IMG/VR virus record: IMGVR_UViG_3300045988_047070
Length of the DNA: 64,000 bases
Direction: 5' to 3' (one strand)
Source: a virus
The notes below the pieces were generated by a model. The model was not told where the DNA came from, did not search any database, and saw nothing but the letters and a program-made list of their open reading frames with translations. Positions 1,554-52,547 of this stretch are shown here, piece by piece. Every line of letters begins with the position of its first letter. The stretch's first letter is position 1. A program made the position numbers and the translations under genes.

Positions 1554-2074
1554 ATTTTCATACTTATGTTTAACCCAATAGTTGTAGGCGTATATACTTT
1601 AAACCTTCAACATTATGGTAACTAGAACATATTCCGTTGCCGGGGTAAGACTCCTCGTAAGCCAGCGGTTGTGGAGTGCTACGGCCACGTAATCAACAGG
1701 GCAAAACCAGGCTCATTTGAGCATTAATCTAAAAAACTCAATAACTTTCCAAGACATTGAGGACACCAGTTTCTTACAAATAGGTTTAGGACTATCCTTG
1801 TAAATACTTAGCTACTACAACATTGATTTCTAGAATCATAACGCCAGAGTAGAGAACCCCTATTTGTAAGTTTTAGGTGTAAAATGCATATTATCTATTT
1901 TAACAAAAGAAGCCATAGCTTACTATAGATAATGTTGTCAGTGCAACACTCTATAGCGGAAAAGTATATTAAACATATATGCTATGCCACGCTTCGGTAC
2001 TTTGTTATGTTGGTTCAGCAATGTAACATCACTGAAAGTTACTGTTGTGTGTAATATTAACGGGAGCCAACCCA

Positions 2075-2135
2075 ACCATGTAGTGATACTGTATCAAAGA
2101 ACTGAAAAAATACAGGAAGGCTATCACTACATGGT
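2075..2135 (+). other. long perfect hairpin in the 5' region of ORF 2170
   Basis: ACCATGTAGTGATA (2075-2088) pairs perfectly with TATCACTACATGGT (2122-2135), giving 14 bp. An inner CTGTAT/ATACAG helix lies within it. Confidence 0.6.
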
Positions 2136-2169
2136 CTAATTTGATTATTAATCAATAAAATTATATATT

Positions 2170-2361
2170 ATGATAGCAGTAGTAAAGTGCTATAAGCACA
2201 ACATAAAACCATTAGTAGTAGAGGTATTTGAAGGTCATGATGAACAAACACAGAAGGATGCTAAAGAGTTAGCAGCTATCCTAAGTAGGAAGAATAAATG
2301 TGAGTATAAAGTACTCATTGATCTTTCTTGTGTTGCTGTTATACACGATTCAAAGGAGTAG
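2170..2361 (+). CDS. hypothetical protein (63 aa)
   Basis: ORF track. A palindromic terminator-like hairpin overlaps its stop codon. Confidence 0.45.
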   Translation: MIAVVKCYKHNIKPLVVEVFEGHDEQTQKDAKELAAILSRKNKCEYKVLIDLSCVAVIHDSKE

Positions 2362-2383
2362 GCTATAGCCTATTTTCCTTTCT
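2359..2383 (+). terminator. terminator-like palindrome plus T-rich tract
   Basis: TAGGCTATAGCCTA palindrome is followed by TTTTCCTTTC. Confidence 0.4.
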
Positions 2384-2387
2384 TACA

Positions 2388-2440
2388 ATGCACCAAGTCA
2401 AATTTCCCTTCTAGCATATTGTGAGGAGTATAGGATACTG
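2388..2440 (+). repeat. ATGCACCAAGT box, copy 2
   Basis: ATGCACCAAGTCAAATTTCCCTTCTAGCATATTGTGAGGAGTATA aligns with copy 1 at 1501-1553. Confidence 0.5.
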
Positions 2441-2632
2441 CTGTGATTTATGTGTATGTAATTGATAAGAGAGTATTTGTAAGTTTGAGAATAGTTTACT
2501 CTTTTTTCAGTCTGCCCTTTAATCACATTGCTTATAGCTGCCTTTACGCATACATATAATATATAGCGTATCCTACTCTTTGCATAAACAATCAAACAAT
2601 TAAATAATCAAACAATTAAGGAGGACAAACAA

Positions 2633-3250
2633 ATGAAATGTATTATTATTGGACACGAATTCGCAGAGGCAAACACAGGTAACTTGTATTGTAAACTAGA
2701 AGTAAGACCTGCAAATGATGAGTGGGCTGCATCTTTCAACTATGTAATGTTTATTACAGAGGCAATGAAAGAAGCCTTAGAAGCTAGATTTCCTAAAGAA
2801 ATATATCTGCAAGAAATACGTATGCAAACACCTGAGCCATTTAACAGAGTATGGGCTACAGATGGTAACAATCACATGCAAGGTGAAATAGTCTGCAACG
2901 CTAAAGGCGATCCTATCGTATTTAATGACATCAAAGTCGTAATACGTACATTACCTGATGGCACACCTGCTAGAGGTGAAGATGCTGAGAAGCTACTAGA
3001 ATCTAGCTGGCGTAGAGGTATTGAAAATGGTACTATCTTACCAATTGGTGAAGGTACAGATGTACCAGATAACAATATTGGACAAACTGTAGGAGGAGCA
3101 GATGCATTTGCGGGAGCACAATCAGCTGGAGATCCAGAGAGTCTAGAGACATCTCAACCAGATCCACTACCTACAGGTAACGTTGTAGTGCCGGGTAACC
3201 GACCACAACGACCACAGCAACAAGCTGGAATCAGAGTACCTAGAGTATAA
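2633..3250 (+). CDS. early protein, paralog of 1055..1462 with a Gly/Pro/Gln-rich C-terminal extension
   Basis: ORF track. A strong AAGGAGG lies 9 nt upstream of the ATG. The N-terminal 130 aa align with 1055..1462. Confidence 0.75.
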   Translation: MKCIIIGHEFAEANTGNLYCKLEVRPANDEWAASFNYVMFITEAMKEALEARFPKEIYLQEIRMQTPEPFNRVWATDGNNHMQGEIVCNAKGDPIVFNDIKVVIRTLPDGTPARGEDAEKLLESSWRRGIENGTILPIGEGTDVPDNNIGQTVGGADAFAGAQSAGDPESLETSQPDPLPTGNVVVPGNRPQRPQQQAGIRVPRV

Positions 3251-3285
3251 CAGGGATTTGCCGGGTAACCGGCAGACCTGTTTTA
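3251..3285 (+). terminator. rho-independent terminator after 2633..3250
   Basis: TGCCGG-GTAA-CCGGCA is nested in CAGG...CCTG and followed by TTTT at 3281-3284. Confidence 0.6.
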
Positions 3286-3320
3286 ACAAAAACTCCCGAA
3301 CATCTGCATATGATGTTTTG

Positions 3321-3357
3321 GGTTAATTAACATTATTAACTTTTAAAAACATTCATC
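3321..3357 (+). promoter_or_regulatory. conserved leader, copy 1 (TTAACATTATTAACTTTTAAA core)
   Basis: GGTTAATTAACATTATTAACTTTTAAAAACATTCATC is nearly identical to 6711-6748. Both lie directly upstream of small membrane-protein ORFs. Confidence 0.45.
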
Positions 3358-3531
3358 ATGGAAGGAAAAGATGAAAACAAGCCAAAGATTGTGTATTTTA
3401 TTCTAGCTGTGTTTATTCATGCTAATGTGTTTCTACCATTCCTATCTGAAAAGACAGGAGTGCATGGAGCGTTCATATTGTGTGATATAATACTTGCTAT
3501 TATAGTATATAATCTAATGGCTCGGAATTAG
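3358..3531 (+). CDS. small hydrophobic protein (57 aa, below ORF-track cutoff)
   Basis: Hand translation gives MEGKDENKPKIVYFILAVFIHANVFLPFLSEKTGVHGAFILCDIILAIIVYNLMARN with a stop at 3529-3531. A terminator hairpin follows. Confidence 0.45.
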   Translation: MEGKDENKPKIVYFILAVFIHANVFLPFLSEKTGVHGAFILCDIILAIIVYNLMARN

Positions 3532-3543
3532 GGAGTTAGGGGT

Positions 3544-3565
3544 GGGTGAAAACTCACCCCTTTTA
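3544..3565 (+). terminator. rho-independent terminator
   Basis: GGGTGA-AAAC-TCACCC is followed by CTTTT. Confidence 0.5.
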
Positions 3566-3589
3566 TATTATCAAACAAAAATCAATACA

Positions 3590-4039
3590 ATGAAGATTCT
3601 ATTTAACTTTAAAAAATCTAGTTGTAAACTTAACTGGATAGGAATATTGAAAGTAGTTTTTGGGTTCAACTTAAAGAAAGCTAAAGCTATTGTGGACTAT
3701 GGAAGTTATACATATATTGTAAATGACTTAAAGAACCCTATAGATATGCAACAGTACTTTATTGATCTTCTTATTAGGATAAATTCTGCATGTATATCCA
3801 GTCTAGACGCAGATCAAAGAAAGGATGAACTTAAGAAGGTAATATCCCTTCCTATATATGACGAAGATGTATCTAGCACTACTCCGGCAGTACAAACAAT
3901 AAATGTACAAGATTTGGATATTGTAAAGGTGGGCTCAGTATATATCCTTACTCAGGAAAGATATGAGAAGCTTTTAAAAGCTGAACAAACATTGTCAAAG
4001 ATAGAAACAGTACTTTACAAATGGAAGAACAATGAATAA
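3590..4039 (+). CDS. hypothetical protein
   Basis: ORF track (3542..4039). I prefer the ATG at 3590 (MKILFNFKK...) because the GTG-extended version overlaps the terminator hairpin. Confidence 0.6.
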   Translation: MKILFNFKKSSCKLNWIGILKVVFGFNLKKAKAIVDYGSYTYIVNDLKNPIDMQQYFIDLLIRINSACISSLDADQRKDELKKVISLPIYDEDVSSTTPAVQTINVQDLDIVKVGSVYILTQERYEKLLKAEQTLSKIETVLYKWKNNE

Positions 4040-4244
4040 AAGAAGACAATATCACAAATCAAATTGTGATTCTATAGTTAGAGCAACCGTAACAGATGCA
4101 CTAGGACGTAAAGTTATCCTAGTTGGAAAGCACGCTTTCGAATGGTCTATTATACTTGAAAAAGAAGGAAGATTAGTAATAACTACTTTTCCTAATAGAG
4201 AACAAGCAGTAGATACATTTAACAAAAAGTACAGGAATAAATGA
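4032..4244 (+). CDS. hypothetical protein (70 aa)
   Basis: ORF track. It overlaps the upstream gene by 8 nt, which suggests coupling. Confidence 0.55.
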   Translation: MNKRRQYHKSNCDSIVRATVTDALGRKVILVGKHAFEWSIILEKEGRLVITTFPNREQAVDTFNKKYRNK

Positions 4245-4393
4245 TATGTGTACGTATCCAGTGTATGAAGTGATACACAACTTTCTTATCTAATTTAATA
4301 TTCTTTTGGCATAATTTCCTCAGCTAATTATTGCGAGTAAAAGTAATTAGTTCGCTACTATCTCATACTAATAGTGAGGGAAAGTATGTGGTA

Positions 4394-4472
4394 ATTCTGT
4401 GTAGTTTAAGTGTCTAACACATGGTAGAATCCCCTGCTAAGGGCGAATGCAGGTTCGAATCCTGCCACAGAA
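4394..4472 (+). tRNA. tRNA-like gene, anticodon unresolved (a CTGCTAA loop would read GCU/Ser)
   Basis: The acceptor TTCTGTG/CACAGAA forms 7 bp, and the T arm is GCAGG-TTCGAAT-CCTGC. A D-like arm GTTTAAGTGTCTAAC is present. The central 30 nt contain CCC-CTGCTAA-GGG but do not fold canonically by hand. Confidence 0.55.
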
Positions 4473-34408: not shown

Positions 34409-34450
34409 AAAAAAGAAAGGGGTCGTTGTGAAACGATCCCTTTTTTGTTT
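34409..34450. terminator. bidirectional rho-independent terminator at the convergence of the early (+) and late (-) blocks
   Basis: GGGGTCGTT-GTGA-AACGATCCC forms 9 bp including one G-U pair. It is flanked by AAAAAAGAAA upstream and TTTTTTGTTT downstream. Confidence 0.75.
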
Positions 34451-37400
34451 ATCCAATACGATTTATCATATCATTTAGCTTCTCTCGTGGATTCTTCATA
34501 TTATAGTAGGCATTAAGTATTGGAATAACTTTAATAAAGTCTCTTTGCCATCCCTTTAATCCTTTATAAGCACCTCTTTCAATTTCTTCATATTTTCTAC
34601 TACTCAAATAAGATAACGGATTAATAACCCTATTAACATCTACAAATGTTTGAATCAATGGAGTAATAGAATTAAGAATATCGAATACATCCATTGCATT
34701 GTATCTAGAACCAGATTCTAATGAAATCTTCTTTAATTCTAATCGTAAGAATTGAGTAAACCAATAATCATCATCGTCTGCACCCATTCCAAATAGGTTA
34801 AATATAGTTAACCAGAAGAAATATGTGAATATTTGAGCATTAAATCTCCTAATATGTAAATCTATTTGTTTTTTTACATCTACATCAGGATATTGTTCTT
34901 GTAACTCTTTTAACTTTTCATCATTTCTTCCTGTAAGTACTCTCAATAGCTTAATAAGATTTCTATCAGAACCATATTTCCATCCGTAGAAATATGCTGA
35001 TGCTGTTCCCATCGATAACTCTTTTGTCTGGTAATTCCAGTACATTGGAGATATTGTATTTTCTATATTTTTTGGAATAAAAGCACGGAACATAAGTATA
35101 GTACTAAGGGCTGGTAATAAATGAACACCACTTTTATCTGCTTCCTCAACCATACCTTCTGCATGACTAGATATAGACCCTAACTTAGCAGTTATTTCTT
35201 CTTCTAACTCAGCAGTAACATATGGTGCATACTTGGGTTTTACTCTAAACCCATCTTTCATTTCATATGCGTTCCATAAATTATCTTTAGCGTTTCTATA
35301 TATAGCCTTACGCTCTTCTATAGACTTATTAAGAAAATGGTTATCTAGAAAATCGTTCTCAGAAATAAAATGTAATTGCCCATCTTCTAATCGAATTAAC
35401 TTATAGTTTAAATAAACTGAAACAGTAAATGCACTATTAGGTAAAAATGACATTAATTTAAAAGCAGAGTATGGTTCTGCAGCTCTAGTAATCATTCTAC
35501 CTATTCTCCATCTATTAGTATTAGATAAATCTTCCTCCTGATTAAAAGTAAGACCATTATATTCTAATGCACCTATCAATTTATTATTAGCTTGATTCTT
35601 ACCAAATTGACTAGCAACTTTCAAGCTAATTAATTCTTTTGTTAAAATACTATTTGCAATAGTGAAATCATGCATATTATAATGCTTACGAACAAAAGCA
35701 TCATTAGCATAAAAACTCCATGCAGCAACTCCACCAGATATTGCAGAACGTAAGTTCCAAGACAAACCAATATCTCTACCCCATCTTGAAAAATGCTCAA
35801 ATACTTTATCTAAAGAAATCTTATAACCTTTTAATGTTACTTCAGGTAATATATCTCGTCTACCATAAATATGATAACCTATGTAAGTATGAACTGCATC
35901 TGCTAATTTGCTGCTTGCAGCAGGCTTAGTAAAACCTTTTTGTCTAATAGAACCAGCATTAGTAATTAAACTGTCTAATAGATTTAATTGAGGGGCCACT
36001 TTCTTTTTATTCTCATAATTACAAGCCATTCTGTAATATTTAGTAATAGCTCCAATTAAATCATTAGTACCAGAAGCAGGATCAGTAAGCATAGTAGTAT
36101 ACATAGTAGGCATAATATTTATTTCTGTACCATTAGGCCTAGTTTCTACTTTTACTCCATGTATTTCATCATCTGGTTGAATACCAAATGCATTTATCAT
36201 ATAATTTCTTGTTCCTGTAATAAGCCCTCTATTACCCCAATAATTAAATATATTACCATTAATTTGTGGTAGCTTATAGTTATTTTTATAATTAGAGTGA
36301 GTAATTTTATCATTAGCTTCATTCATAACATCTAGAATAACATTTCTAAGATTAACTAAAGCAGGATCTCTCATTACAGCATTGTAAGCTTTTCTATTAT
36401 CGTATTCTTTAATAGATAATTTAGGTTGTTCTGTCTCTGGTATACTGTTATCATAGTTTTTATTATAGAACTTAGATTCTTCAGATGTCTCAGCCCAATT
36501 GCTATTTGGTACTCTATGCATGTACTGTTGACGTACTGGTATTACTTTGGTCATATAAGAAGCATAGTGTTTTACTCCTTTATCGTCTACCCATATATCG
36601 TCAGGTGATACAGCACTTTTACCTCCATTTTCTTTTGCTATATCACTAAGTTCAGATTTAAATAGTCTAACACTGCTAGCAGTTTTTTTAGTACGCTTCC
36701 TAACATTATACATTGCTATATCAAGCTCTTTAATTTTATCCTTAACAGCTTGAGGCATTCTAGTATAATCTGGTTCAAATTTATCAGTTCTATATAATCT
36801 TAATAGATTGTATCTAGCTTGATATAACCTATCATATATTTCACCATAATCTTTTTTATTTTGCCTAGATACTTTTTCTTTAAATTCATCTGTAAGTTCC
36901 CATCTAGTATTACGCTCTAACCAAGCACTATACAATGTATTGCTTCCATCTGGAGTATATCCTTCCATGTTTTTCATTCTTTCCATTTCTTCTAGGAAAG
37001 CATCCATATCCACTTTAGATTCTAAACCTTCTTGTAGTTTAGCATATGCTTCTGTAAGTTCAGCAGCTATCTGTGCTTCTACACTACCTTCTGGTTTTAA
37101 TTCTCCAGTAATAGGATCATAAGGATTTGCAAGATTCCGTTTCTTCTCTAATAACCTAATATATTTTTGATATTCATCTATTGGCATTCTTTCGAATCTA
37201 GGTTTATTAGTATTACTATCTCTGTATGGTTTTAATATATTATCTATCTCTAGGTTTACTTCAGATAGAGCCATATTAGCTTCCATACTTAGATTAGTAA
37301 AGATAGCATAAAACTCTGGTGTGTATTTTCTTTCACAATTCTCAGACTTCCAATCATTATAATCTTTTTGATATTGTATCCATAGAGAAGGATTAAGTTT

Positions 37401-39740
37401 AAGCTCATCAATACTGGCTAATTTATGATTCTTTAGCCAATCTTTTCTAAACTTATATTTATTATTTTGATATACACCATATTTACGATCTCTAATTAAA
37501 TATCCAGTCTTTTTACCATCTACATCCCTTTCAAATAAAAGGTTATGATCTCTTGTTTCTTTTGCTGCTTTATATAATTCAGCATACTTACGATAAACCT
37601 GTTTATGAGTCATAGAGTTAACATCCCCAATAACTTTTCTCAATAGTTTGATAACAAATTTAGGTGAGTTTACAGGAGTAGCAAAGAATCTATGATACCA
37701 ATTTAAATCACCATCAAAAGTAAGCCAGTTCATCAGAGCTCTATCTATATTAGGATCTTTAGCTTCTTCCATTTCAGTACGCAAGAACTTTTCTACTGTT
37801 CTTCTAACTGAGTTCCCATACATGTAACCAATGTTTTCTCTATCTATCATCTTTTTAGATGAGAATTCTCTAATCAATCCATCTACTACAGATAATATAT
37901 TATCAAATTCATTAGTACCTAATATATTTTCATAAATATTCCTATTAAATTCTGTATTTAGCTCATTATAAAGTTTACGTAAATTACTCTCATGTGGGTA
38001 TAAATACTCAGCACCAAAGTTATCTAAAGCAGTCCTTAGTTTAGTAAGTTCTTCAGTATCATTTGTTATCTGTGCAGTACTTATCTTTTCATCAATAGTT
38101 TTGATTACTCTTTCTGCTTCGTCCAGACTGTATATTACATTATCTACATACTCTAGACTACCATTAAGGAAATTAGTAATGTTATTGACACCTTCTACAT
38201 CTGTTATAGAATTCTGGATACTTCTAAGACTAGATAGTAATTTGTCATTACGTAAATTTTCGTTTCTATCAAATTTATCTTCTATAACATTGTACCTTAA
38301 AGAAGCCACACGGTTCTCTGCTGTTTTAACCATATCAGAGAATACAGATCTGAGTTTGATAGAAGCAATTTCTTCACGCTTACTGGCTGCTGGTAAAACA
38401 TCGGGTATATAATCATAAGAATCTTCTCTTTGCTCTAGAGTTTGATATGCATTAAATTCAATAACATTATCTACTATTTTATTAATTAGATCTTGATGAG
38501 TAGTATTTTTACCAAACAATCTCTTAAACCAATCAATAATCCTTTGAATTAATGTTTTTTCTCCTTTTGTAGCAGGGAAGTCAAACATATTGTGAATGAC
38601 CTCAGGATTAGAAAATAGCTCTGCAGCAAACTCATATACATTCTTACTAGCATGGTCATCATGCTTTTCTGCATACTCTTTTTGAATCTTTCTAAGTTCA
38701 TTCGCTGCTTCAGTATTTGAAGCTAACGAGTCTAGAGTAATAGCATGGGCTATTTCATGTAATAATACATTTTCTAATGAACCATATCTACTGAAATCAC
38801 CATTTCTATTTACTACAATCGCGTTAGATTTTCTGTCATATATAGCAGGTGTCCAGTAAGTAGCTTCAGGATACATTTCATTTAATGGTCTATCTATATA
38901 TTCAATAGATACTGGCTGCATATTTATTTTACTAGCAACATCATTGAGTACAGTAGCCATTTCAGAATCCATATTATCTAATAGTTCTTTACTATTACTA
39001 TAAGATTGCATAGATTCTAATTGACTTATATTTTCTGTGTTACTATCTGCTAGATATATGTTATTCTCCTGAGTAGAGAATGTACCTTGATTATCTATTG
39101 ATTTTACATTATTTGGATTATTTATAACATAAATATTTTGATTTAATTCTTGATTGTCATCAATACCGTGAAATATAGCAATATCTGCTTCTTCAGCTGC
39201 ACGATTTATAGTTGCAGTAAAACTTTCTCCTTGTTTTTTTAAATCGTCTTTTGTACCAGTTTTTTCAATTACAGTATTAGCTTTTAAAAATACAGGAAAT
39301 TTATATTCTCTATCTAAAACTGTGCCTTTTTTAGGATTTGCTGTACCAGTAAAGAATAAAGCTTTTTTCGTTCCGTTTTTGATTGTAGAAAAGTAGTTAT
39401 CAAATTCTATAGAAAACTCGTTTATAGGAGAATTGGCGTGATGATATACTACTAAAGGTTCACCATTTTCATCTACTACTTTGGATTCACCAAACCATTC
39501 TTTAAAACTCTTAGAATAAGTTCTAGCTTTAGCTTGAATAGCAGCTACTCTATCACCATTATAATGCTCTAAAAGGTCTGAAAAGAGCTTAGATGGCTCC
39601 CCATTGGGAGCCTTATCTATGCCATTACCATTGTTCTGCGACCATATATGATAAGCCGCTGCTTCACTAGTTGCATTTTTTAATTCTTCAAATTCTCTTG
39701 CAACTTCTTCATTTTTTAAATTAGGACAAATTATTTTCAT
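34449..39740 (-). CDS. giant virion-associated protein (1763 aa) with zincin metallopeptidase motif
   Basis: It is an uninterrupted 5.3-kb ORF. HEIAH lies at residue 328 (nt 38745-38759) in the context LENVLLHEIAHAITLD. It is adjacent to the RNAP-containing giant gene. Confidence 0.75.
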   Translation of the reverse strand: MKIICPNLKNEEVAREFEELKNATSEAAAYHIWSQNNGNGIDKAPNGEPSKLFSDLLEHYNGDRVAAIQAKARTYSKSFKEWFGESKVVDENGEPLVVYHHANSPINEFSIEFDNYFSTIKNGTKKALFFTGTANPKKGTVLDREYKFPVFLKANTVIEKTGTKDDLKKQGESFTATINRAAEEADIAIFHGIDDNQELNQNIYVINNPNNVKSIDNQGTFSTQENNIYLADSNTENISQLESMQSYSNSKELLDNMDSEMATVLNDVASKINMQPVSIEYIDRPLNEMYPEATYWTPAIYDRKSNAIVVNRNGDFSRYGSLENVLLHEIAHAITLDSLASNTEAANELRKIQKEYAEKHDDHASKNVYEFAAELFSNPEVIHNMFDFPATKGEKTLIQRIIDWFKRLFGKNTTHQDLINKIVDNVIEFNAYQTLEQREDSYDYIPDVLPAASKREEIASIKLRSVFSDMVKTAENRVASLRYNVIEDKFDRNENLRNDKLLSSLRSIQNSITDVEGVNNITNFLNGSLEYVDNVIYSLDEAERVIKTIDEKISTAQITNDTEELTKLRTALDNFGAEYLYPHESNLRKLYNELNTEFNRNIYENILGTNEFDNILSVVDGLIREFSSKKMIDRENIGYMYGNSVRRTVEKFLRTEMEEAKDPNIDRALMNWLTFDGDLNWYHRFFATPVNSPKFVIKLLRKVIGDVNSMTHKQVYRKYAELYKAAKETRDHNLLFERDVDGKKTGYLIRDRKYGVYQNNKYKFRKDWLKNHKLASIDELKLNPSLWIQYQKDYNDWKSENCERKYTPEFYAIFTNLSMEANMALSEVNLEIDNILKPYRDSNTNKPRFERMPIDEYQKYIRLLEKKRNLANPYDPITGELKPEGSVEAQIAAELTEAYAKLQEGLESKVDMDAFLEEMERMKNMEGYTPDGSNTLYSAWLERNTRWELTDEFKEKVSRQNKKDYGEIYDRLYQARYNLLRLYRTDKFEPDYTRMPQAVKDKIKELDIAMYNVRKRTKKTASSVRLFKSELSDIAKENGGKSAVSPDDIWVDDKGVKHYASYMTKVIPVRQQYMHRVPNSNWAETSEESKFYNKNYDNSIPETEQPKLSIKEYDNRKAYNAVMRDPALVNLRNVILDVMNEANDKITHSNYKNNYKLPQINGNIFNYWGNRGLITGTRNYMINAFGIQPDDEIHGVKVETRPNGTEINIMPTMYTTMLTDPASGTNDLIGAITKYYRMACNYENKKKVAPQLNLLDSLITNAGSIRQKGFTKPAASSKLADAVHTYIGYHIYGRRDILPEVTLKGYKISLDKVFEHFSRWGRDIGLSWNLRSAISGGVAAWSFYANDAFVRKHYNMHDFTIANSILTKELISLKVASQFGKNQANNKLIGALEYNGLTFNQEEDLSNTNRWRIGRMITRAAEPYSAFKLMSFLPNSAFTVSVYLNYKLIRLEDGQLHFISENDFLDNHFLNKSIEERKAIYRNAKDNLWNAYEMKDGFRVKPKYAPYVTAELEEEITAKLGSISSHAEGMVEEADKSGVHLLPALSTILMFRAFIPKNIENTISPMYWNYQTKELSMGTASAYFYGWKYGSDRNLIKLLRVLTGRNDEKLKELQEQYPDVDVKKQIDLHIRRFNAQIFTYFFWLTIFNLFGMGADDDDYWFTQFLRLELKKISLESGSRYNAMDVFDILNSITPLIQTFVDVNRVINPLSYLSSRKYEEIERGAYKGLKGWQRDFIKVIPILNAYYNMKNPREKLNDMINRIG

Positions 39741-39746
39741 ATATGA

Positions 39747-42700
39747 TTACTTTATACAATGATTCATTTCATCTGTAGGAAATTCATTCTCATTATTGAA
39801 TTCATTAGTCTGTTCAGTCTGTTCAGTCTGTTCATTTTCAGAAGTAGAAGGTTGTTCAATAGTGTTTTCTACCACTTCACCATTTTCATCCATACTAGTA
39901 TCTACTAATGGAGCTGAATCATTTTCAACAGTACTAAACATATAATCAATTGTATTTCTTGAATAAAATACTCCACTTAATGGTTTACCACTTACCTTAT
40001 TAGTTTGTGAATTAATTTTTGGTACAATCTCATTGTTAATAATATCTGGAATATCTTCTAAGAAGTTATTATCATATTTAGCAAATCTTGGAGCAACATT
40101 ATTACCCGGAATAATAGAGAATCTAGATATATATTTACTTCCAGTAGTATATGGAGATAAGTATTCAGATACAAACCCTTTACCACCTTGTCTAAATCCT
40201 TTCTTATTCACTAATATATATAATGGTTTATATGTTTTAGTTTTACCATTATCTTTAATAAATGTACCAACATATTTATATAGATTATATCCACCAGTAG
40301 CATTGTTATCTCTCATTTTAACATATGGATGGTACAATGGAACATCAGTATCATCTTTACAAACATATCTTCTAGAAGATCCTTTAATAGCTACAGGAAC
40401 TAATCTATTACCAACTTTTTCTCTATGAATATAGATACCTTTAGTATTTGTATTTATTACAGGAACCATGTTATTATCTTGCCAGTTATTACGATAGATT
40501 TCATCTACATCATCTGGAGTGAACAGATTAGAGAAATCATCTATATTTTTCTCTAAAGTTCTTACAGTTTCATAATAACCAAGTTCATCTAATACCCTAG
40601 TAGGTATAAAATCAAATAGAGAATTCAAGTGTTTAGTACCATGACCACTAAATACTGCATATCGAACTAAATCATAAGCTAAATCATGTAATTCTTGATT
40701 ATCACTATCTAATAATTCTTGCCAGTATTCTCTAATCTGTCTACTAGCATTAGAACTAATATCATCTGAATAATCTAAACGAACATAATCTATAGCTTTA
40801 CCTGTGGTATCAGTTACACCAGTAATACTATTAAGGAATAGATTACTAATTCTACCATTAGTGACGGAAATGATTGGATATTTACCACCTTTGGAAGCAG
40901 CATCAGAGATAATATCAGTTTTAATCCTATTAATTCTCTTAGCAATGGTATTAGGACCAATGAATAGGTCTCTCAGCTCTTTCATACTATTAATTAATGG
41001 ACTACTAGTACTATCATACAATGCATAAGCTCTCCAGTAAGAATCAATAGCATTAGTAAATGCTGTTACAGCTTGTTTATCTTTTACTTTGGAAAATCCA
41101 CTAGCATTAATAAGAGATCTAAATACCCTATAGTACTCATCAGAAGATTGTATATTAATTTTACCAAGTAAATCCAATGTGAACTTGATACTATTATCTA
41201 TCTTCTTTTGTAAGAATGTTTCCTTAAAGAATTTATTAATCATTTCTGATGTGAAATATGGACTAGTATAACAATCAGCAACATTCTGTAAGAAAGTTCT
41301 CATTTCAATAGAGTTCTTACCAAACTTCTTAGTATCTACTTGAGAAGCCTTTACAAGATCAGACATTGCCTGAGCCATAGGTTCTATTTCTTTGAATAAC
41401 TTATATACAAGTATTTGTCCATAGTAATAATCAAAATCTTTTTCTTTATCATTTGCTTTACGAAGAAGATTTTCTAAATAACCTAACTTTCCTTGTTCAG
41501 GAACCTCAAACAATACTTGATCTGTAACTTGTTCATTCTTAAGCAAGAGATCAAGATTTTCTTTATCCTCATTGGATTTAGCTAAACTCTTTGCTTTAGT
41601 AACAAATTTATCATATACTGCTTTTTCCTTCTCTTGGAATCTTCTATAGAATGGTTTAGTGTTATCTATGCCATAAACTCCCCTACTCTGTATATAATCA
41701 TTTGCAAGATCTTTCATGATCTCTTGTGAAACAAAATACATAGTATTCTTGCCAGCACCATTTCTTAATAAAAAGTTAGTAAGATTATAGGTAAATCCAT
41801 TTACATTTAGTTTGATGATATAGTTATCCTTAGCAACGTCAACGTGAGCACTAATCAATGCAGATAACCAGTCTAGAATATGAATATCATCTACACCACT
41901 TACTTTATGCAAGTTACCTATATTCGGTAAGTACTCTGGAGATTGCATTACTAATTCAACTAACTGACCTAATACATGATGCGGGTTATTTAATGCAAAT
42001 GGCCCAATACCACCTTTACTATCAGCAAAGTCTTGTTTTAAAGTATCTTGATATTCTTCTGTATACTCATATAAAGCAGCATCATTCTTTTTATCAGGGA
42101 AATACTTCTTTACAATACCGTTTTTCATGATGTTAACAGGAACATCCAATGGTCTAGTAGTATCGTGAGTATTCTTAGAATCAAGTAATGAAGCCATAAA
42201 TGTATCAATCAATAGGTTTTCTATAGCACCCTGAGATTGTTCATTCATTGACTTATTATAATCAAATTCTGTCTTAGAAGATATATAAGGATAAACTTTA
42301 TAGGTTGCGTCTGTAACATCATACACAACATTAGAATTCTTACTTTTAAGATAATCATTAACTAATGTTGCCATATTCTGCGTTGATCTTCTTGTAACAG
42401 GCTCACCGTCTTTAATAGCTAAGATTTCATCAGCATATTCATTAAATCCACTTAATGCTAATTCTTTTTCATCTTTAGTTGCTTCTCTTCCGGGTTTATT
42501 ACTTCTACGAGAAGTATAATTATATCTTGTTAAGAATAACTTATCAATATCAAAGTCAGAACCAGTTCTTGCAGTAAACTCATCTGGTAATATAATTATA
42601 TCTCCAGCTTGAGACATTACTACATCTTTAATAGTTAAAGCAGCGATAGAAGACATACCCTGAGTAGGTACACGATATGCCATTGCAGATGGTGAAGCAT

Positions 42701-45700
42701 TTGGACCAATTATATTGTTATCCATTAACCACTGCCTAGCTTGTAAGAATGACATATTTTCATATCCGGGGATTATGTGTTTCAATAGATTTATTGAAAT
42801 AACACACTCCATAGATCTATCATCTGCAATTAGTTTAAGTCTTTCACCATTATTGATTTGGTACTTAGAATATTGACCAGCTTCACTAGCTTTTACTTTA
42901 TCAATGGATTTTAAACCAAAGGAAGACATCTGTACGAATGTACCACCTGGTAGATTAATATCTACAGTTTCTTTGTTTACTGCGGATATAATCTTTGTGA
43001 CTAATTGCTTAGCTACAGGAGAAGCAGACAATGGAACTTTAAAATTACCAGTTTCATCAAGAGTAACTTGATCAATAATATCAGAATCCATATTAGATGA
43101 AATCATATCCCTTACTAATTTATCAGATATACCTTGCAGGTCTTTAAAAGAATATGTACCATCTTCATTCTTTTCAGCATGCAAATCCTTAAGAATTCTA
43201 TTGAGTCCTCTATCTGATAAATTATCAATAGCGTCCATTGCTAATTTAACTAGCTGTCTACCACTAACTTTCTTACCTTTTCTACCTGTAGTATCTTGGT
43301 CTACACCGCTACTAGAAGGAATAAAATAGTCTCCATCCAATCTAATATTTGAGAATACTGTCTTCATAGCCTGAGTAACCAACATACGCTTTTCAGCATC
43401 GTGGGCTTCAATAGGCATCTGATTAAGTAAGTTACCAAAATTCTGTTGTCTATATACAATAGGTTTAGAATAGGTTCCTTTATCATCCTTTTTGAATTCT
43501 TCTGTTATTTCATTTTGAGTAGCATCTGTATAGAAATCATACTCTTTGATATTACCTACTTTTACTGCGGATTTTGTAGTAAACATATCAATAGGATTAT
43601 TAACATCATTCATCCTATCATACAATACTCTTAAATCTCCAGTAGCTAGTACTTTAAATAACGGGAATATAGCCATCTTATTAAAGATAGGCATATTAAT
43701 GAATTCACCGGGTATTGGTTGTAGTATTTCATTACCAAAGTATACCATCTTTTTAGGAGATAATACAGCAGATAATGTATTTACATATTTTCTGATATCA
43801 CCTAAATCATCAGCATGCTGCTCTACATAATCAATAGCTTCTTCTACTTTAGGATCTAATAAACCTTGACTAGCTAAGATAGCTTTATACATAGTAGGTG
43901 AACAGTATACAGATGCATCGGCTTGGTTAATTGGAGTTTCTTCTTCATTAACCTCAATATTACCTTCTTTATTCATCTTAATATCACCATACAATGATAA
44001 GTCACGCTCTGTACTCTCTTTAGCTTTATCTTTGATACCTTGTGGTATACTCTCATTACTGAATAGATCACCAGATTCAAATACAGTATCAATGTATTCT
44101 TTGGTATATTTACCAGAGTTTTCCATTAATTCCCTTACATATGCATCATAGATTGCTTTGTATAACTCTTTTGGTTGATTAGTACGCAACTCAACATCTT
44201 TTAATCCAGCCACATTATATCTACCTTGTTTATACCTAGCAACTTTATTCATTAAATGGTTAGGATCAGAGAAGTCTGTTCTAGGTCTATCACCAGTTGA
44301 TAATGTACCAGCAAGACGTTTAGATACATCAGGATAATTCTTAAAGAATGCTACATCTTTATACAGGATTTTTTCTGTTTCAAACATTGACACAAAGTTA
44401 TTAACAGTAAATGTAGAAATAGCATCATAAATAGCTATATGGTTCCTATTTAGTTCATTTTCCTTTCCTGCTAATGTAGCAATATCATTAGATAATTTAT
44501 TAGCTCTGTCATTAATGGAACTTACAGGTAAGAATTTATTCTTATAATACCCATCAGTTGTTTTCTCAATTAGACCTAATCTTTGTATATAATCTAATTG
44601 TTTATCAACAAATACTCCTAATGTAGTATTTAGATCTTCTTTCAATTGAGCAGTATTATTAAAATAATCCATTAATTCTTTATCACTCATTGAATTAAAA
44701 GATATGTATTGTACATTACCATCTCCAGTATAATGATATACACCACGAGCAATTCTAAACTTACCTCCTTTACCGTTATCCTCACCTCTTTTACCAAAGT
44801 ACATGGTAGGTCTGTTGGAATCATCAATCTTATCTTCTGCTAATTTCATTCTACGATACTGTAGAATTGCATCATATTCACTTCTGTAGTATTTATAGAA
44901 TTGGTTTAATACATCATCAGAAAATCTCATTTCAACATAATCGTCAACAGGAGTAATGTTTAAAGTACGACCTTTAAACATTTTTAATCCTTGAATTGGC
45001 ATATATGTCTTTTTATCAGACATCGTAGGTAAGATAAGAATATCATTTTCAGAACATACAAATTTAGAAATAAATGTTTCTATTCTAGGAGCCGATTGAT
45101 AATCTGTACCAGTATTACCAGAATTATATTCTGTAATATTAAGTAAAGTACCTACAGTAAGCCTAGTATTAGGACTATTCTTTAATGTATTATAAACTAG
45201 TGAAGAAGAGTTAATAGGACATTTTAATAATCTACTAACATAATTTCTATCATTATTAAGCTTCTTAATTTCCAAAGTAAGATAATTATGCTTAGATAAC
45301 GGGTACACTGTAGTATTCTTAGGTCCTAATACTTTCTCCTCTAGATTATTGTTATTAAGCTGATAATGAACAATAGCTAAGTTTAATATACTGTTTTCCC
45401 CAGTAAACACACCATCAATAGATCTTTTAATCCTATCATTAGGTTTGTCTTTAACAGGCCTACGCAAAATTTCAGGAATTGCTTTAGCTAAACTACCATC
45501 TCTATTACTAGATAATAACTCTTTAGCTGCTTGTAGTATTGTAGGCTTATTAACTGAATTGACTGACGATACCTTATCTACAATGGCTTGATACAAAGTA
45601 TCAAAATTAATTGCAATACCAATCTTATTATATATATCTACATAGCTATATAAGACTGCATTGAAATCTTCATTGCTAGTAGATTCATTCATTCTAGCTA

Positions 45701-48700
45701 ACCTAGTATTTAATGTGTTGATATCATCTCTAATAGTCTTTAGTAACTCCATGTTAGGCTTACGATTACCTTCTGCATCAGTAATTACCATATTACTATT
45801 ATAGAAGTTTCTATTCCAATCTGCAACTAGTCTTTTACCATTACGTAGATTAACACTACCACCTAAGTTGGCTATGTATTGAATAGTATCTGTTCCAATA
45901 TTTTGGAATCCTACTGTAAGGAAGTTATGCCTATAACCAGTAATAGTTTGAAATATTTGAGTTTGAAGATTAGAATCCTTTACTGAGGATAACTTATTAT
46001 ACACTGAAGCATAGAATGGATCGGTTTTTGCTAATTGAGCAGATTTCCTGATTAATCCATCATAAGTATCTTCATCAAATAATTTATCTACAATTCTTCT
46101 CCAAGCTGTAAGGAATGGTGTTACTCTAGGTATACCAGTTTCAGCATTCATATCTCTTACATAACTATCTGTAGCTTTATCGTATACACGATCTTCAATA
46201 GAAGATAAGAAAAGTTTTACAGCAGGTCTAATATTATGTAATACAGATACTTCGTAGGAAGCTTTATCATATTTATCAAAGTTTTCCTTTTCAATTTCAC
46301 CACCATCTCTTTCCTCAGTTTCATCATATTCCTGTTCTTCTTTTACTTGTCTTAAGCTTAAAGAATCAAGATAGGACTTAATATCTTTTTGGAATACATC
46401 AAAGTGCTCATATAATTCATTAGCAGCTGCTCTTTGCTCTGGTGTAGCATTATCATCATATGATAAATCCTCAAGTAGATCACGCATATCTTGGTAATCA
46501 ATCTGTATTTTAGTAAGATCATCTACAAAAGATTGAGAACTTAATGATTGATTAATATAAGATATTGCAAAGAATTCTACAGCCTGATTATAGTTATCAA
46601 GAGATTTTATGTTTTGGAAAGTGTACCCATGTTGAGTAAAGTTTACCCTATTTCTATAAGCTTTCTCAAATCTATCTTTAGCTTCTTGGCTTACTGGGAT
46701 ATTAGCATACTTACCTTCATATATGCCTCTAAAGATTTTAGTAGGAGTAGTTCTACCAAATAAAGACATAATGAAGTCTCGTAGTTTTTCAAACCACTTA
46801 GTAATCCTATAAGACTTTCTTGGAGTCTTATACATCATATACCCTCTAAATTCTTCTGCTAACGCTTCTTCTACATATTTATCAGATGCATTCTTAAGAT
46901 TAGGATGAATTCTACGATACTCTTCATATACTTTGTTTCTTTCTTGATCTGATAGTAATAATAGAGATACTCTATGGTATGCTTCGTGAAATTCTACACC
47001 AGATGGATCACTATTATATAACGTAATACTATCTTTAGTCATATAAGATAAAGCTGTTGCGGGCATATCAGAAGATACAGCTGCATCAATTATATTAATC
47101 TCTGCATCTGTCATACCTAACTTTTGTTTCAAGAAGTTTTTAGCTTGCACCTTATTCAGTTTCTCCTTAGTAGTATATTTCTTATTAGGAGTGAAGTTTA
47201 TTTTAACTTCTTTTTGGCTACCACCCATACTAGATAAATCGCTAAATGATCTACGTCTTCTAGATGGTTTAGGCGCTTCAGATTTAGGAGCTTCTTCTAT
47301 TGCTGGAGTTGCTGTAGAATCAGGTATAGTTGTAGGCATATCCTGAGTCATACCATCTGCAATTACATATGGTCTTTCATATCTTCCTGCATTAAGATTA
47401 GATTTAATCATACCATTTCTTACCATCCAAGACAATAATGTATGATTCATATCTTCTCTAGTAAATACTATACCATCAAATAATTCCAATCTACCACCTG
47501 CCTTTTCAACACTACTGGCTAATCTACCAGAAAATAATAGATTCATTTTCATGTTAACTGCTAACTTATCATTCCCTTTTGAAGGAACCTTAAAAGGCAT
47601 AGAACCATTAGACAATAACCAATCTTCAAAGTGCTTTCTCTCTTGCTCTTTTTGTGCAATAGATAAACCAGCTAATGATACTTCATTAATACCATAGTGT
47701 AATACACCAAATTGCCCTTTATTATCTATATACAATTGTTTATTACGCAAATTAGCTTTTGCAGAATCACTAATGTCAGAGTCATTATTTACAGAAGTAG
47801 GTTCACCATAGTTTAAGAACATTTCAATAATATCAGATGCAATTAAATCTGTATTATTTATATTCTGTCCACCCTTAAATCCGCTTCTAAACACTATAGT
47901 AGAGATTGCCTCTGCTAATTTAGGATAAGAGTTGAATCTTGCTAAAGATAATTTTAATGGTAATGGTCTACCGGATAATCTTTTTTTACCATCAATAATA
48001 TAATACACACCACCAGAAGTAGTACCAATAAAACCAGTATTATCACCTTCTACGGTAAATATAGTACTTGTACCTCTAACACCAGTACTATATCCAAAGT
48101 TATTGATCTCTTCATCTAGATTACCACTAAACTGAAATACATCTTTAAATTGTTTATCATTTACTGGTATCTCTTGAGAAATAGTACCTTCAATAGCATT
48201 ATGCAGTAACAATCTAGTAGGAGTTACCTTTATTCTAGTATCTACCTTATTTAGTAAAGACCCATTTGAATCTTTCATTACAAACCTAGAGATAATTTCT
48301 TGTCTACGTTCCCGTAGTTTTCTTATCATCTCAGGATATTCTTCTGGAGTAAGATTACGAATATTATTCGGGCTTCGCATTGCAACCCAATACCTTTTAT
48401 TATTTTCAGTATTAGTAATTATTAATCCTACTCTGGCATAATCATAGGTATTAGGATCATTCCATTGTACTGTCTTCTTACGAATATTATCATAGTAAGG
48501 TGCTACAGAATATTCATAAGTAAGTTTATCTTGTTTAGTTTTAAACAGCTTAGGTAATTCAGAGTTAGGAGAGAATTGAATTCTAGCACCGCCTAATTCT
48601 ATAGTTTCACCAATATTAGCAGTAGGAGTATAATGGAAAGTATTTAAAATACCTAACTCACTATTCTCTGTGAATTCAGCTAATTCTGAATCACTAATAG

Positions 48701-52547: not shown

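Follow-up and report, generated by a model that had tools for sequence, protein, structure and literature searches.

A single open reading frame of a Suoliviridae crAss-like phage joins a gp67-like module to a virion-type RNA polymerase with a predicted zincin

The DNA considered here is a stretch of 64,000 nucleotides from the IMG/VR virus record IMGVR_UViG_3300045988_047070, to which we refer as the window, and its subject is a giant open reading frame (ORF) at positions 39747..52547 of the minus strand, a strand assignment missing from a first-pass annotation that a model had made from the letters of the window. The ORF listing and a translation in the standard code agree with that annotation on a single uninterrupted frame of 4266 residues, which starts at an ATG and has its sole stop codon at the end. 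Both motifs singled out at that time are present as described: HEAYH at residue 1854 is the only HExxH of the protein, and DFDID at residues 3331-3335, in the context FTARTGSDFDIDKLF, is its only DxDxD. In composition-preserving shuffles of the protein (n=5000), an HExxH appeared in 2.2%, a DFDxD in 5.6% and the two together in 0.06%, and the co-occurrence of both motifs is not a matter of chance. Our overall reading, to which we give a probability of about 0.8, is that the ORF encodes a packaged cargo protein of the family Suoliviridae, where a module of the type of gp67 from phage phi14:2, an M34-like zincin and a polymerase of the phi14:2 gp66 type follow one another in a single chain.

The giant ORF is 96.7% identical at the nucleotide level, over its full length, to the uncultured phage cr10_1 (MT774382 / NC_055875), which belongs to Crassvirales, Suoliviridae, Boorivirinae, as Canhaevirus hiberniae. 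Its orthologue in cr10_1 (QOR58745.1) is one coding sequence of 13,383 nt labelled “hypothetical protein”, and its 4460 residues are colinear with those of the window at ~98% amino acid identity, with a length difference only in the C-terminal tail; HEAYH 1854, DFDID 3331 and the flanking genes are the same. The window is a strain of Canhaevirus hiberniae / cr10_1, a crAss-like phage of the Suoliviridae. A fusion of adjacent genes by an assembly error or a frameshift, as had been considered from the beginning, retains a negligible probability and was rejected: the colinear ORF recurs in the independently assembled cr10_1, single ORFs occur across Suoliviridae genomes and in more than 100 homologues (108 giant ORFs in a representative library), and the region where the modules meet is in frame and conserved in position.

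A single ORF of this size is not the unusual arrangement that it was first thought to be. Seven Suoliviridae genomes from six subfamilies each contain one ORF of 4400-5794 residues at the corresponding position, namely cr10_1 (4460 residues), cr118_1 (4946), cr60_1 (4494, TAG recoded), cr1_1 (4551), cr273_1 (5794, TAG recoded), cr50_1 (4774) and cr6_1 (4400, TAG recoded). A full HMMER scan, with residues 2481-3680 as the query, of a library of 1.84 billion proteins whose representatives stand for clusters at 50% identity, retrieved 1298 representatives at E<=1e-3; among the best 150 of these 1298, 146 were new, and 108 of the 146 are proteins of 4018-6939 residues with a DFDxD, a range in which the 4266 residues of the window lie close to the short end. 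Giant single ORFs are the rule in Suoliviridae and recur in over 100 of the 50%-identity clusters. The first-pass annotation had also stated that these modules are usually spread over several large proteins, which holds for phi14:2, with three separate ones, and fails for the Suoliviridae, which carry them fused. As an observation of its own, the three recoded genomes (L003, L007 and L009) show 36-57 in-frame TAG codons within the giant ORF, in agreement with the TAG reassignment reported for Suoliviridae.

The C-terminal half of the protein is a two-barrel virion RNA polymerase of the phi14:2 gp66 type, a module that phmmer and Foldseek comparisons with the gp66 structure (6VR4) place at residues ~1991-4125 (40173..46577, minus strand). 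When all PDB sequences were searched with phmmer, the sole protein matched was phi14:2 gp66 (E 2e-23), with residues 2540-3795 of the query aligned to gp66 704-1825 and TGSDFDIDK identical in both. The catalytic DFDID (42543..42557, minus strand) falls on 1361-DFDID-1365 of gp66 and fits the DFDxD catalytic motif with Ile/Val at position 4, and the G and D residues of the motif are invariant in 30 sequences. Sequence homology also reaches crAss001 gp50 (E 3.9e-20). An AlphaFold model of residues 2481-3680, built from a 30-sequence alignment (predicted local distance difference test, pLDDT, 77.9; predicted template modelling score, pTM, 0.72), matched 6VR4_A, the gp66 fold with its two double-psi beta-barrels, connector, bridge helix and trigger loop, in Foldseek with E 3.9e-40 and TMq 0.66 over 1302 columns, in a comparison made on the whole fold; the next matches, all weak, were beta-prime-type subunits of the phiKZ and AR9 polymerases and those of poxvirus, African swine fever virus and Pol II. 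A second model, of residues 1759-2564 (pLDDT 72.4), matched the same chain with E 4.4e-12 over 694 columns, and a structure search of BFVD returned only other crAss polymerase fragments. The initial assignment of DFDID to the virion polymerases of crAss-like phages is borne out in this way by both sequence and fold, and the possible lack of a double-psi beta-barrel fold around the motif, raised together with it, did not materialize. Phi14:2 gp66 has been shown by experiment to be packaged, delivered with the DNA and responsible for the transcription of early genes (Drobysheva et al., bioRxiv 10.1101/2020.03.07.982082), and the cargo proteins of crAss001 were found in its virion by proteomics.

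Just ahead of the polymerase, at residues ~1786-1990 (46578..47192, minus strand), invariant columns, a profile match and a structural model delimit a predicted zincin of the gluzincin type, similar to M34/PPEP-1. Within HEAYH (codons at 46974-46988, minus strand), H1854 and H1858 are the predicted zinc ligands and E1855 the predicted catalytic base, whilst E1894 (46866-46868, minus strand) is the predicted third zinc ligand. The motif is a real and conserved signature: every Suoliviridae giant ORF examined has one HExxH only, in the form HE[AG][FYW]H, located 1444-1876 residues before DFDxD, and a HE[AGS][FYW]H is found 1200-2200 residues upstream of DFDxD (median 1522) in 101 of the 108 giant homologues from the library. 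In an alignment of 21 diverse sequences (22-57% identity), six positions are invariant, which correspond to the H, E and H of HExxH and to the E, A and F of EExxAExF. HEAYH, residues 1854-1858, lies within a predicted helix (1851-1864), and the invariant E1894, part of EEALAEEF and 40 residues past H1854, lies in another (1889-1906); here the model of residues 1759-2564 shows two short strands, the HExxH helix, a further helix and the Glu helix, with pLDDT values of 71-87.

The profile of this alignment, searched against the PDB, met the M34 peptidase PPEP-1/Zmp1 at a borderline E of 0.0038, from HExxH through EEFFAESF, and E1894 aligns with the second Glu of the latter motif. This residue we take to be Glu185, the third zinc ligand of PPEP-1. 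Pfam scans of the zincin segments of individual family members gave scattered noise, besides one match in one of seven members to ATLF, the anthrax lethal factor family (E 9.6e-4, under the curated threshold); Pfam found no match in the zincin sequence of the window itself, and a protein database search with the zincin region alone returned three fragments only, with no match longer than ~3700 residues there. What the phage domain has in common with M34 gluzincins such as PPEP-1/Zmp1 of Clostridioides difficile and the anthrax lethal factor is an HExxH followed ~40 residues on by EExxAExF, whereas it differs from them in being embedded in a protein of 480 kDa. We predict the HEAYH domain to be a conserved, M34-like zincin, and probably an active metallopeptidase, because its zincin residues are invariant in more than 100 lineages. 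That the motif is a remnant without catalytic function, or a metal site of purely structural purpose, is improbable: it is true that phi14:2 gp66 and crAss001 gp50 work without this zincin, but both the Glu that serves as general base and the Glu of the third ligand stay invariant where overall identity is down to 20-30%, as is typical of active enzymes.

The remaining part of the protein, residues 1-1738 (47334..52547, minus strand), is by its position and by remote sequence similarity the equivalent of gp67, an ejection or cargo protein. A Gly/Ala-rich hydrophobic segment at residues 255-325 (51573..51785, minus strand; A 24%, G 14%, L 11%) is, judging from its composition, a possible membrane-inserting element, and comparable hydrophobic segments are found at residues 172-358 of gp67, of the 2014-residue protein of L010, of cr10 and of cr118; both the family of the window module and the gp67 family carry such a segment in their first 350 residues. 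A core motif common to the gp67 family (EG.EEG.Q followed by a G-rich stretch) lies at residues 497-598 (50754..51059, minus strand), where hhalign joined the family of the window module (131 sequences) to the gp67 family (13 sequences) with 96% probability and E 4.4e-9 over 79 columns. An earlier, smaller hhalign comparison had given a probability of only 74%, and the link emerged with large family profiles. Through fused relatives the similarity is direct, with E 2e-56 between gp67 and the N-terminal module of P0026, and E 1.5e-46 between the separate 2014-residue protein and the N-terminal module of P0020. The linker described by the first-pass annotation as P/Q/E-rich is a real low-complexity stretch at residues ~955-1135 (49143..49685, minus strand), although it is equally rich in A, T and K (A 14%, E 13%, T 10%, K 9%, Q 9%, P 9%; less than 15% hydrophobic); it lies within the part least conserved with cr10_1 and cannot be aligned with cr118_1.

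Relatives with separate genes locate the border between the modules. In P0035 (L010), on an 85-kb contig, the polymerase is a protein of 2392 residues with HEAYH at 107 and DFDVD at 1640, flanked by proteins of 2014 and 1528 residues, and in P0025 (L012) it has 2461 residues with HEAFH at 85 and is preceded by a 1919-residue protein; the gp67-like part of these split relatives is the separate 1919-2014-residue protein directly upstream of the polymerase. Since their polymerases begin 85-107 residues before HExxH, the module boundary in the window falls at about residues 1739-1785 (47193..47333, minus strand), a junction linker rich in S, P and T with an RRRR, which cannot be aligned among Suoliviridae and has a low pLDDT in the model. 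The comparison of domain boundaries with relatives, suggested beforehand, thus places the border just upstream of the zincin, and the zincin makes up the N-terminal end of the polymerase module in fused and split relatives alike, which means that it is not specific to the fusion. Of the three “RNAP-associated” cargo proteins (those associated with the RNA polymerase) of phi14:2 and crAss001, the giant protein naturally combines two in one chain. The fusion that had been suspected therefore exists with respect to those two phages, but it joins only two of the three phi14:2 modules, the gp67-like one and the polymerase.

Phi14:2 shares with the window both the homologous polymerase and the gene order (muzzle ... 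gp67, gp66, gp65), but its gp67 (1797 residues), gp66 (2180) and gp65 (1421) are separate, while in the window the gp67-like and gp66-like parts form one chain; moreover, the only HExxH among the three phi14:2 proteins is HEIMH at residue 245 of gp65, and the window adds a zincin at the start of the polymerase. A similar layout is known from the virion RNA polymerase (vRNAP) of coliphage N4 (gp50, ~3500 residues), a giant protein, packaged and ejected, whose single polypeptide comprises an N-terminal ejection-related region and linker, the polymerase itself and a domain with an HExxH (PMC13434306). However, the N4 enzyme is a T7-like single-subunit polymerase with its HExxH domain C-terminal to it, in contrast with the two-barrel enzyme of the window, so that the resemblance is one of analogy; no sequence homology between N4 vRNAP and the giant ORF was seen in the analysis. 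Thermus phage P23-45 likewise has a giant ORF in which a two-barrel polymerase is combined with a structural or ejection protein of the virion (PMC10770324), but there the polymerase occupies the N-terminal part and has a tape-measure protein as its partner, and the likeness to the window is drawn from description.

Several observations weigh against the composite reading of the protein. Scans of the whole ORF with Pfam and PHROGs gave no match. The homology between the N-terminal module and gp67 is confined to the 79-column core, and phmmer with four rounds of hidden Markov model (HMM) iteration from the window module never reached gp67. For the zincin, statistical support from the PPEP-1 match is borderline (E 0.0038), and Foldseek with the 806-residue multi-domain model (1759-2564) returned 6VR4 only and no peptidase, because the helical N-terminal region of the polymerase dominates that model. 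Furthermore, phi14:2 gp66 and crAss001 gp50 have no HExxH and, by HMM and hhalign comparison of their N-termini, no detectable degenerate remnant of the zincin, which means that polymerase activity in itself does not require the domain.

If it behaves like phi14:2 gp66, the giant protein would be synthesized late and stored in the capsid, it would be threaded through the tail into the host along with the DNA, and the ejected polymerase would transcribe the early genes. The N-terminal module has a hydrophobic segment and a flexible linker of 180 residues, and plausibly it goes in first and becomes anchored in the cell envelope; the giant polymerase of N4 has been described in similar leading and anchoring terms (PMC13434306). 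The role that we prefer for the zincin, unproven as it is, would be an action on the cargo itself after ejection, either cutting the polymerase loose from the N-terminal module or clipping off an N-terminal stretch with an autoinhibitory effect. The region that directly follows the zincin is a structural match for the N-terminal part of gp66, and this part of gp66 holds a cleft-blocking autoinhibitory domain (residues 196-233), suggested to refold or to be cleaved (Drobysheva et al.). In more than 100 lineages the zincin keeps its place at the N-terminal border of the polymerase module, a constancy that suggests a function connected with the polymerase.

A more extensive form of processing would make the giant ORF a true polyprotein, with the zincin cutting the 1739-1785 linker, and perhaps the 955-1135 one, to separate the polymerase from a gp67-like protein, either ahead of packaging or once ejection has taken place. 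We regard this as possible though doubtful. It would make sense of the invariant catalytic residues and of an exposed, low-confidence linker rich in S, P, T and R just upstream of the zincin, and it has precedents in the proposals of Drobysheva et al. (bioRxiv 10.1101/2020.03.07.982082) that fused forms are cleaved and that the cleft-blocking N-terminal region of gp66 is possibly removed, as well as in the metallopeptidase autoproteolysis that Iyer et al. 2017 propose for polyvalent phage proteins. Nevertheless, the same zincin is N-terminal in stand-alone polymerases that have no upstream module (P0035, P0025 and P0021), the junction shows no conserved cleavage motif, and crAss001 gp47, gp49 and gp50 migrate on reducing gels at ~270, 150 and >300 kDa, the sizes of unprocessed proteins (PMC6235969). 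A protease tied to the fused state is not what the distribution reveals, as the zincin also sits on unfused polymerases of 2392-2461 residues, and its presence there implies that cleavage of the junction is not its conserved role.

Alternatively, the zincin could be an effector that acts during or after ejection on host targets, such as cell-envelope or defence proteins, and not on the cargo. Its closest detectable relatives are secreted M34 toxins and effectors (PPEP-1 and, in Pfam, the anthrax lethal factor), neighbouring or related cargo proteins carry ART-PolyVal, NADAR, helicase and SLOG-like domains, and Drobysheva et al. mention the digestion of peptidoglycan for the zincin of gp65; against an effector speaks the strictly fixed position of the domain, unlike that of the freely shuffled accessory domains. 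We consider self-processing or activation and an action on host targets about equally likely, neither of them with much confidence. The giant ORF resembles the theme of polyvalent proteins (Iyer et al. 2017) but with few domains of its own: it holds the zincin and the polymerase only, PIF1/AAA_30 helicase, NADAR and SLOG-like domains occur in addition among its relatives, and an ART-PolyVal domain with a zincin in the next ORF.

Much of this picture was already in the literature. The idea of a zincin plus a polyprotein was published by Drobysheva et al. (bioRxiv 10.1101/2020.03.07.982082, section 8), Yutin et al. 2021 described a transcription block of several large multidomain proteins with a DxDxD motif, and a 2023 review refers to polymerase genes of up to ~6000 residues. 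The giant fused gene is ordinary for one family of human-gut crAss-like phages and the core idea is known; with fused giant ORFs, the DFDxD and the zincin-polyprotein hypothesis published and a near-identical genome deposited, the finding itself adds little. The zincin-like domain named by Drobysheva et al. is, however, that of gp65, whose counterpart sits in the next ORF of the window (HEIAH), and the HEAYH zincin is a different domain. We did not find it stated in the accessible literature that most crAss-type polymerases have a second, distinct zincin as an integral N-terminal domain. Most crAss-type virion polymerases carry a conserved, predicted M34-like zincin of their own that the two experimentally studied ones lack, and its location just upstream of the region resembling the gp66 N-terminal part turns the proteolytic activation of the polymerase into a testable idea.

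A second refinement concerns the junctions of the cargo proteins and involves the ORF that follows the giant one. This downstream ORF of 1763 residues (34449..39740, minus strand; it begins MKIIC) starts 6 nt after the giant stop codon, and its position and domain content point to a cargo protein similar to gp65. It has an ART-PolyVal-like domain at residues 90-218 (39087-39473, minus strand) and a second zincin motif, HEIAH, at residue 328 (38745-38759, minus strand). We read it as the unfused counterpart of gp65 from its position, this second zincin and a C-terminal hydrophobic segment; phmmer gave no direct link between the two proteins. The 120 close relatives of the protein, 89-98% identical, have 1763-2143 residues, and that of the window is the shortest form, without a 304-residue block after residue 85 and some smaller blocks. 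All 120 start with MK[IT]ICPNLKN, and nearly all have the ART-PolyVal domain.

Cysteine is rare in the polymerase proteins, with a content of 0.13% in 33 non-redundant ones, and the giant protein has none in residues 1-2442. However scarce, a Cys is found in the last 12 residues of 31 of the 33, against a chance expectation of 1.5% per protein (binomial P 1.6e-54, which ignores shared ancestry), in tails that cannot be aligned. In the independent representative set, the last 10 residues include a Cys in 102 of the 108 giants, an N-terminal Cys is absent from all 108, and in several proteins of 4100-5000 residues the terminal Cys is the only cysteine. An N-terminal Cys is present in 18 of the 33, only where the protein does not begin with a fused gp67-like module. 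P0005 and P0007, which lack it, seem to be truncated gene models. One of the two proteins without a C-terminal Cys, P0033, is an apparent fusion of the polymerase with a gp65-like protein, and crAss002 gp33 is likewise without it.

If the gp67-like, polymerase and gp65-like modules are called A, B and C, respectively, the same arrangement is seen from phage to phage. In phi14:2, A is gp67 (1 Cys), ending ...NTIC, B is gp66 (2 Cys), from MAC... to ...QECK, and C is gp65 (1 Cys), beginning MSC...; in crAss001, A (gp47) ends ...LRCNS, B (gp50) goes from MSKRC... to ...KICGANTLYEL and C (gp49) begins MAKKC...; in L010, A ends ...KNCNS, B goes from MFC... to ...SGCK and C begins MAC.... In the window, A and B are fused with a junction that contains no Cys, B ends ...EMNHCIK, where Cys4264 is encoded at 39756-39758 (minus strand), and C begins MKIICPN..., with Cys5 encoded at 39726-39728 (minus strand). 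The cargo proteins are nearly free of Cys apart from those ends that adjoin another module, where it lies among the last 10-12 residues of the upstream protein and at position 3-7 in the downstream one, and both are gone where the modules are fused.

Somewhat short of an even chance, in our estimation, is the proposal that modules A, B and C are joined head to tail, each junction being either a peptide bond or a disulfide between terminal cysteines, so that the cargo would be ejected as one thread, to be set free when the host cytoplasm reduces the disulfides. In the window, A and B are joined by a peptide bond, and a disulfide between Cys4264 and Cys5 of the downstream protein would connect B with C; on this view, the fusion in Suoliviridae put a peptide bond in place of the first disulfide. 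Virions of crAss001 are known to contain intermolecular disulfides in the tail/portal region. We found no mention of the terminal-Cys pattern in the accessible literature. Such a rule would bear on how several proteins of 150-480 kDa are ordered and pulled through a narrow tail, and together with the integral zincin of the polymerase it is a refinement that could be of use for research on crassvirus infection.

Three other origins of the terminal cysteines were ruled out: a nucleotide signal at the gene junctions, since crAss001 gp47 is on the opposite strand and keeps its C-terminal Cys; a lipoprotein signal, in view of the lack of a signal peptide or lipobox; and split inteins, for whose fragments there is no room.

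The pattern also aids annotation. In crAss002 (L015, 7627-20364), gp33 is annotated as an ORF of 4245 residues, an apparent fusion of the polymerase with a gp65-like protein, and its true start probably lies 32 codons further downstream: Met33 would give MSCTPSNP, which fits the M-x-C rule, and gp32 ends ...SFVCS.

The giant protein itself closes with a variable acidic tail, residues 4126-4266 (39750..40172, minus strand), defined by comparison with cr10_1. The cr10_1 orthologue has ~194 extra residues in this tail (residues ~4234-4440), among them a SLOG/YpsA-like region with GGQTGIDEAG that is absent from the window, and both proteins keep the terminal DEMNHCI despite this difference. Accessory domains in the tail come and go, and the last residues are preserved.

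Other relatives have acquired domains of a different sort. PIF1/RecD-type helicase domains (PF05970, PF13604 and PF13245) are present within some giant polymerases (P0004, P0007, P0041 and L002/L008), which explains the names “DNA helicase” and “exonuclease V” that GenBank gives to whole ORFs of 4800-4900 residues; the Pfam scan found no such domain in the giant protein of the window.

Upstream of the giant gene, positions 52537..63082 of the minus strand hold a block of tail and cargo genes, with ORFs of 594 and 699 residues, the muzzle protein (56425-60441, minus strand; Pfam crAss_MUZ, E-value reported as 0), ring protein 1 (60444-61367, minus strand; CrAss_Ring_1, E 5.9e-118) and ring protein 2 (62441-63082, minus strand; CrAss_Ring_2, E 1.1e-78). 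The polymerase gene lies downstream of the muzzle and ring genes, in the same order as in g071-g065 of phi14:2.

An ORF of 218 residues with the GIY-YIG and NUMOD1 domains of a homing endonuclease (61348..62004, minus strand) adjoins the gene of ring protein 1; its DNA has no equivalent in cr10_1, where 101 bp stand in place of 723 bp of the window (61258-61980), and the two phages differ in sequence at the 5′ end of the ring-1 gene, which has diverged. In several relatives (P0006, P0011, P0012, P0015-17, P0210, P0222 and P0283), the polymerase ORF ends right after ...TGSDFD, within the catalytic motif. On a 50-kb contig (L013:10001-25364), the gap after TGSDFD holds an ORF for a LAGLIDADG_2 endonuclease, and the gene then continues as an ORF of 1509 residues with PIF1/AAA_30 helicase and NADAR domains. 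From its sequence, the interruption looks like a group I intron inserted within the active-site codons, and the polymerase gene of the window, unlike those relatives, is intact at TGSDFD.

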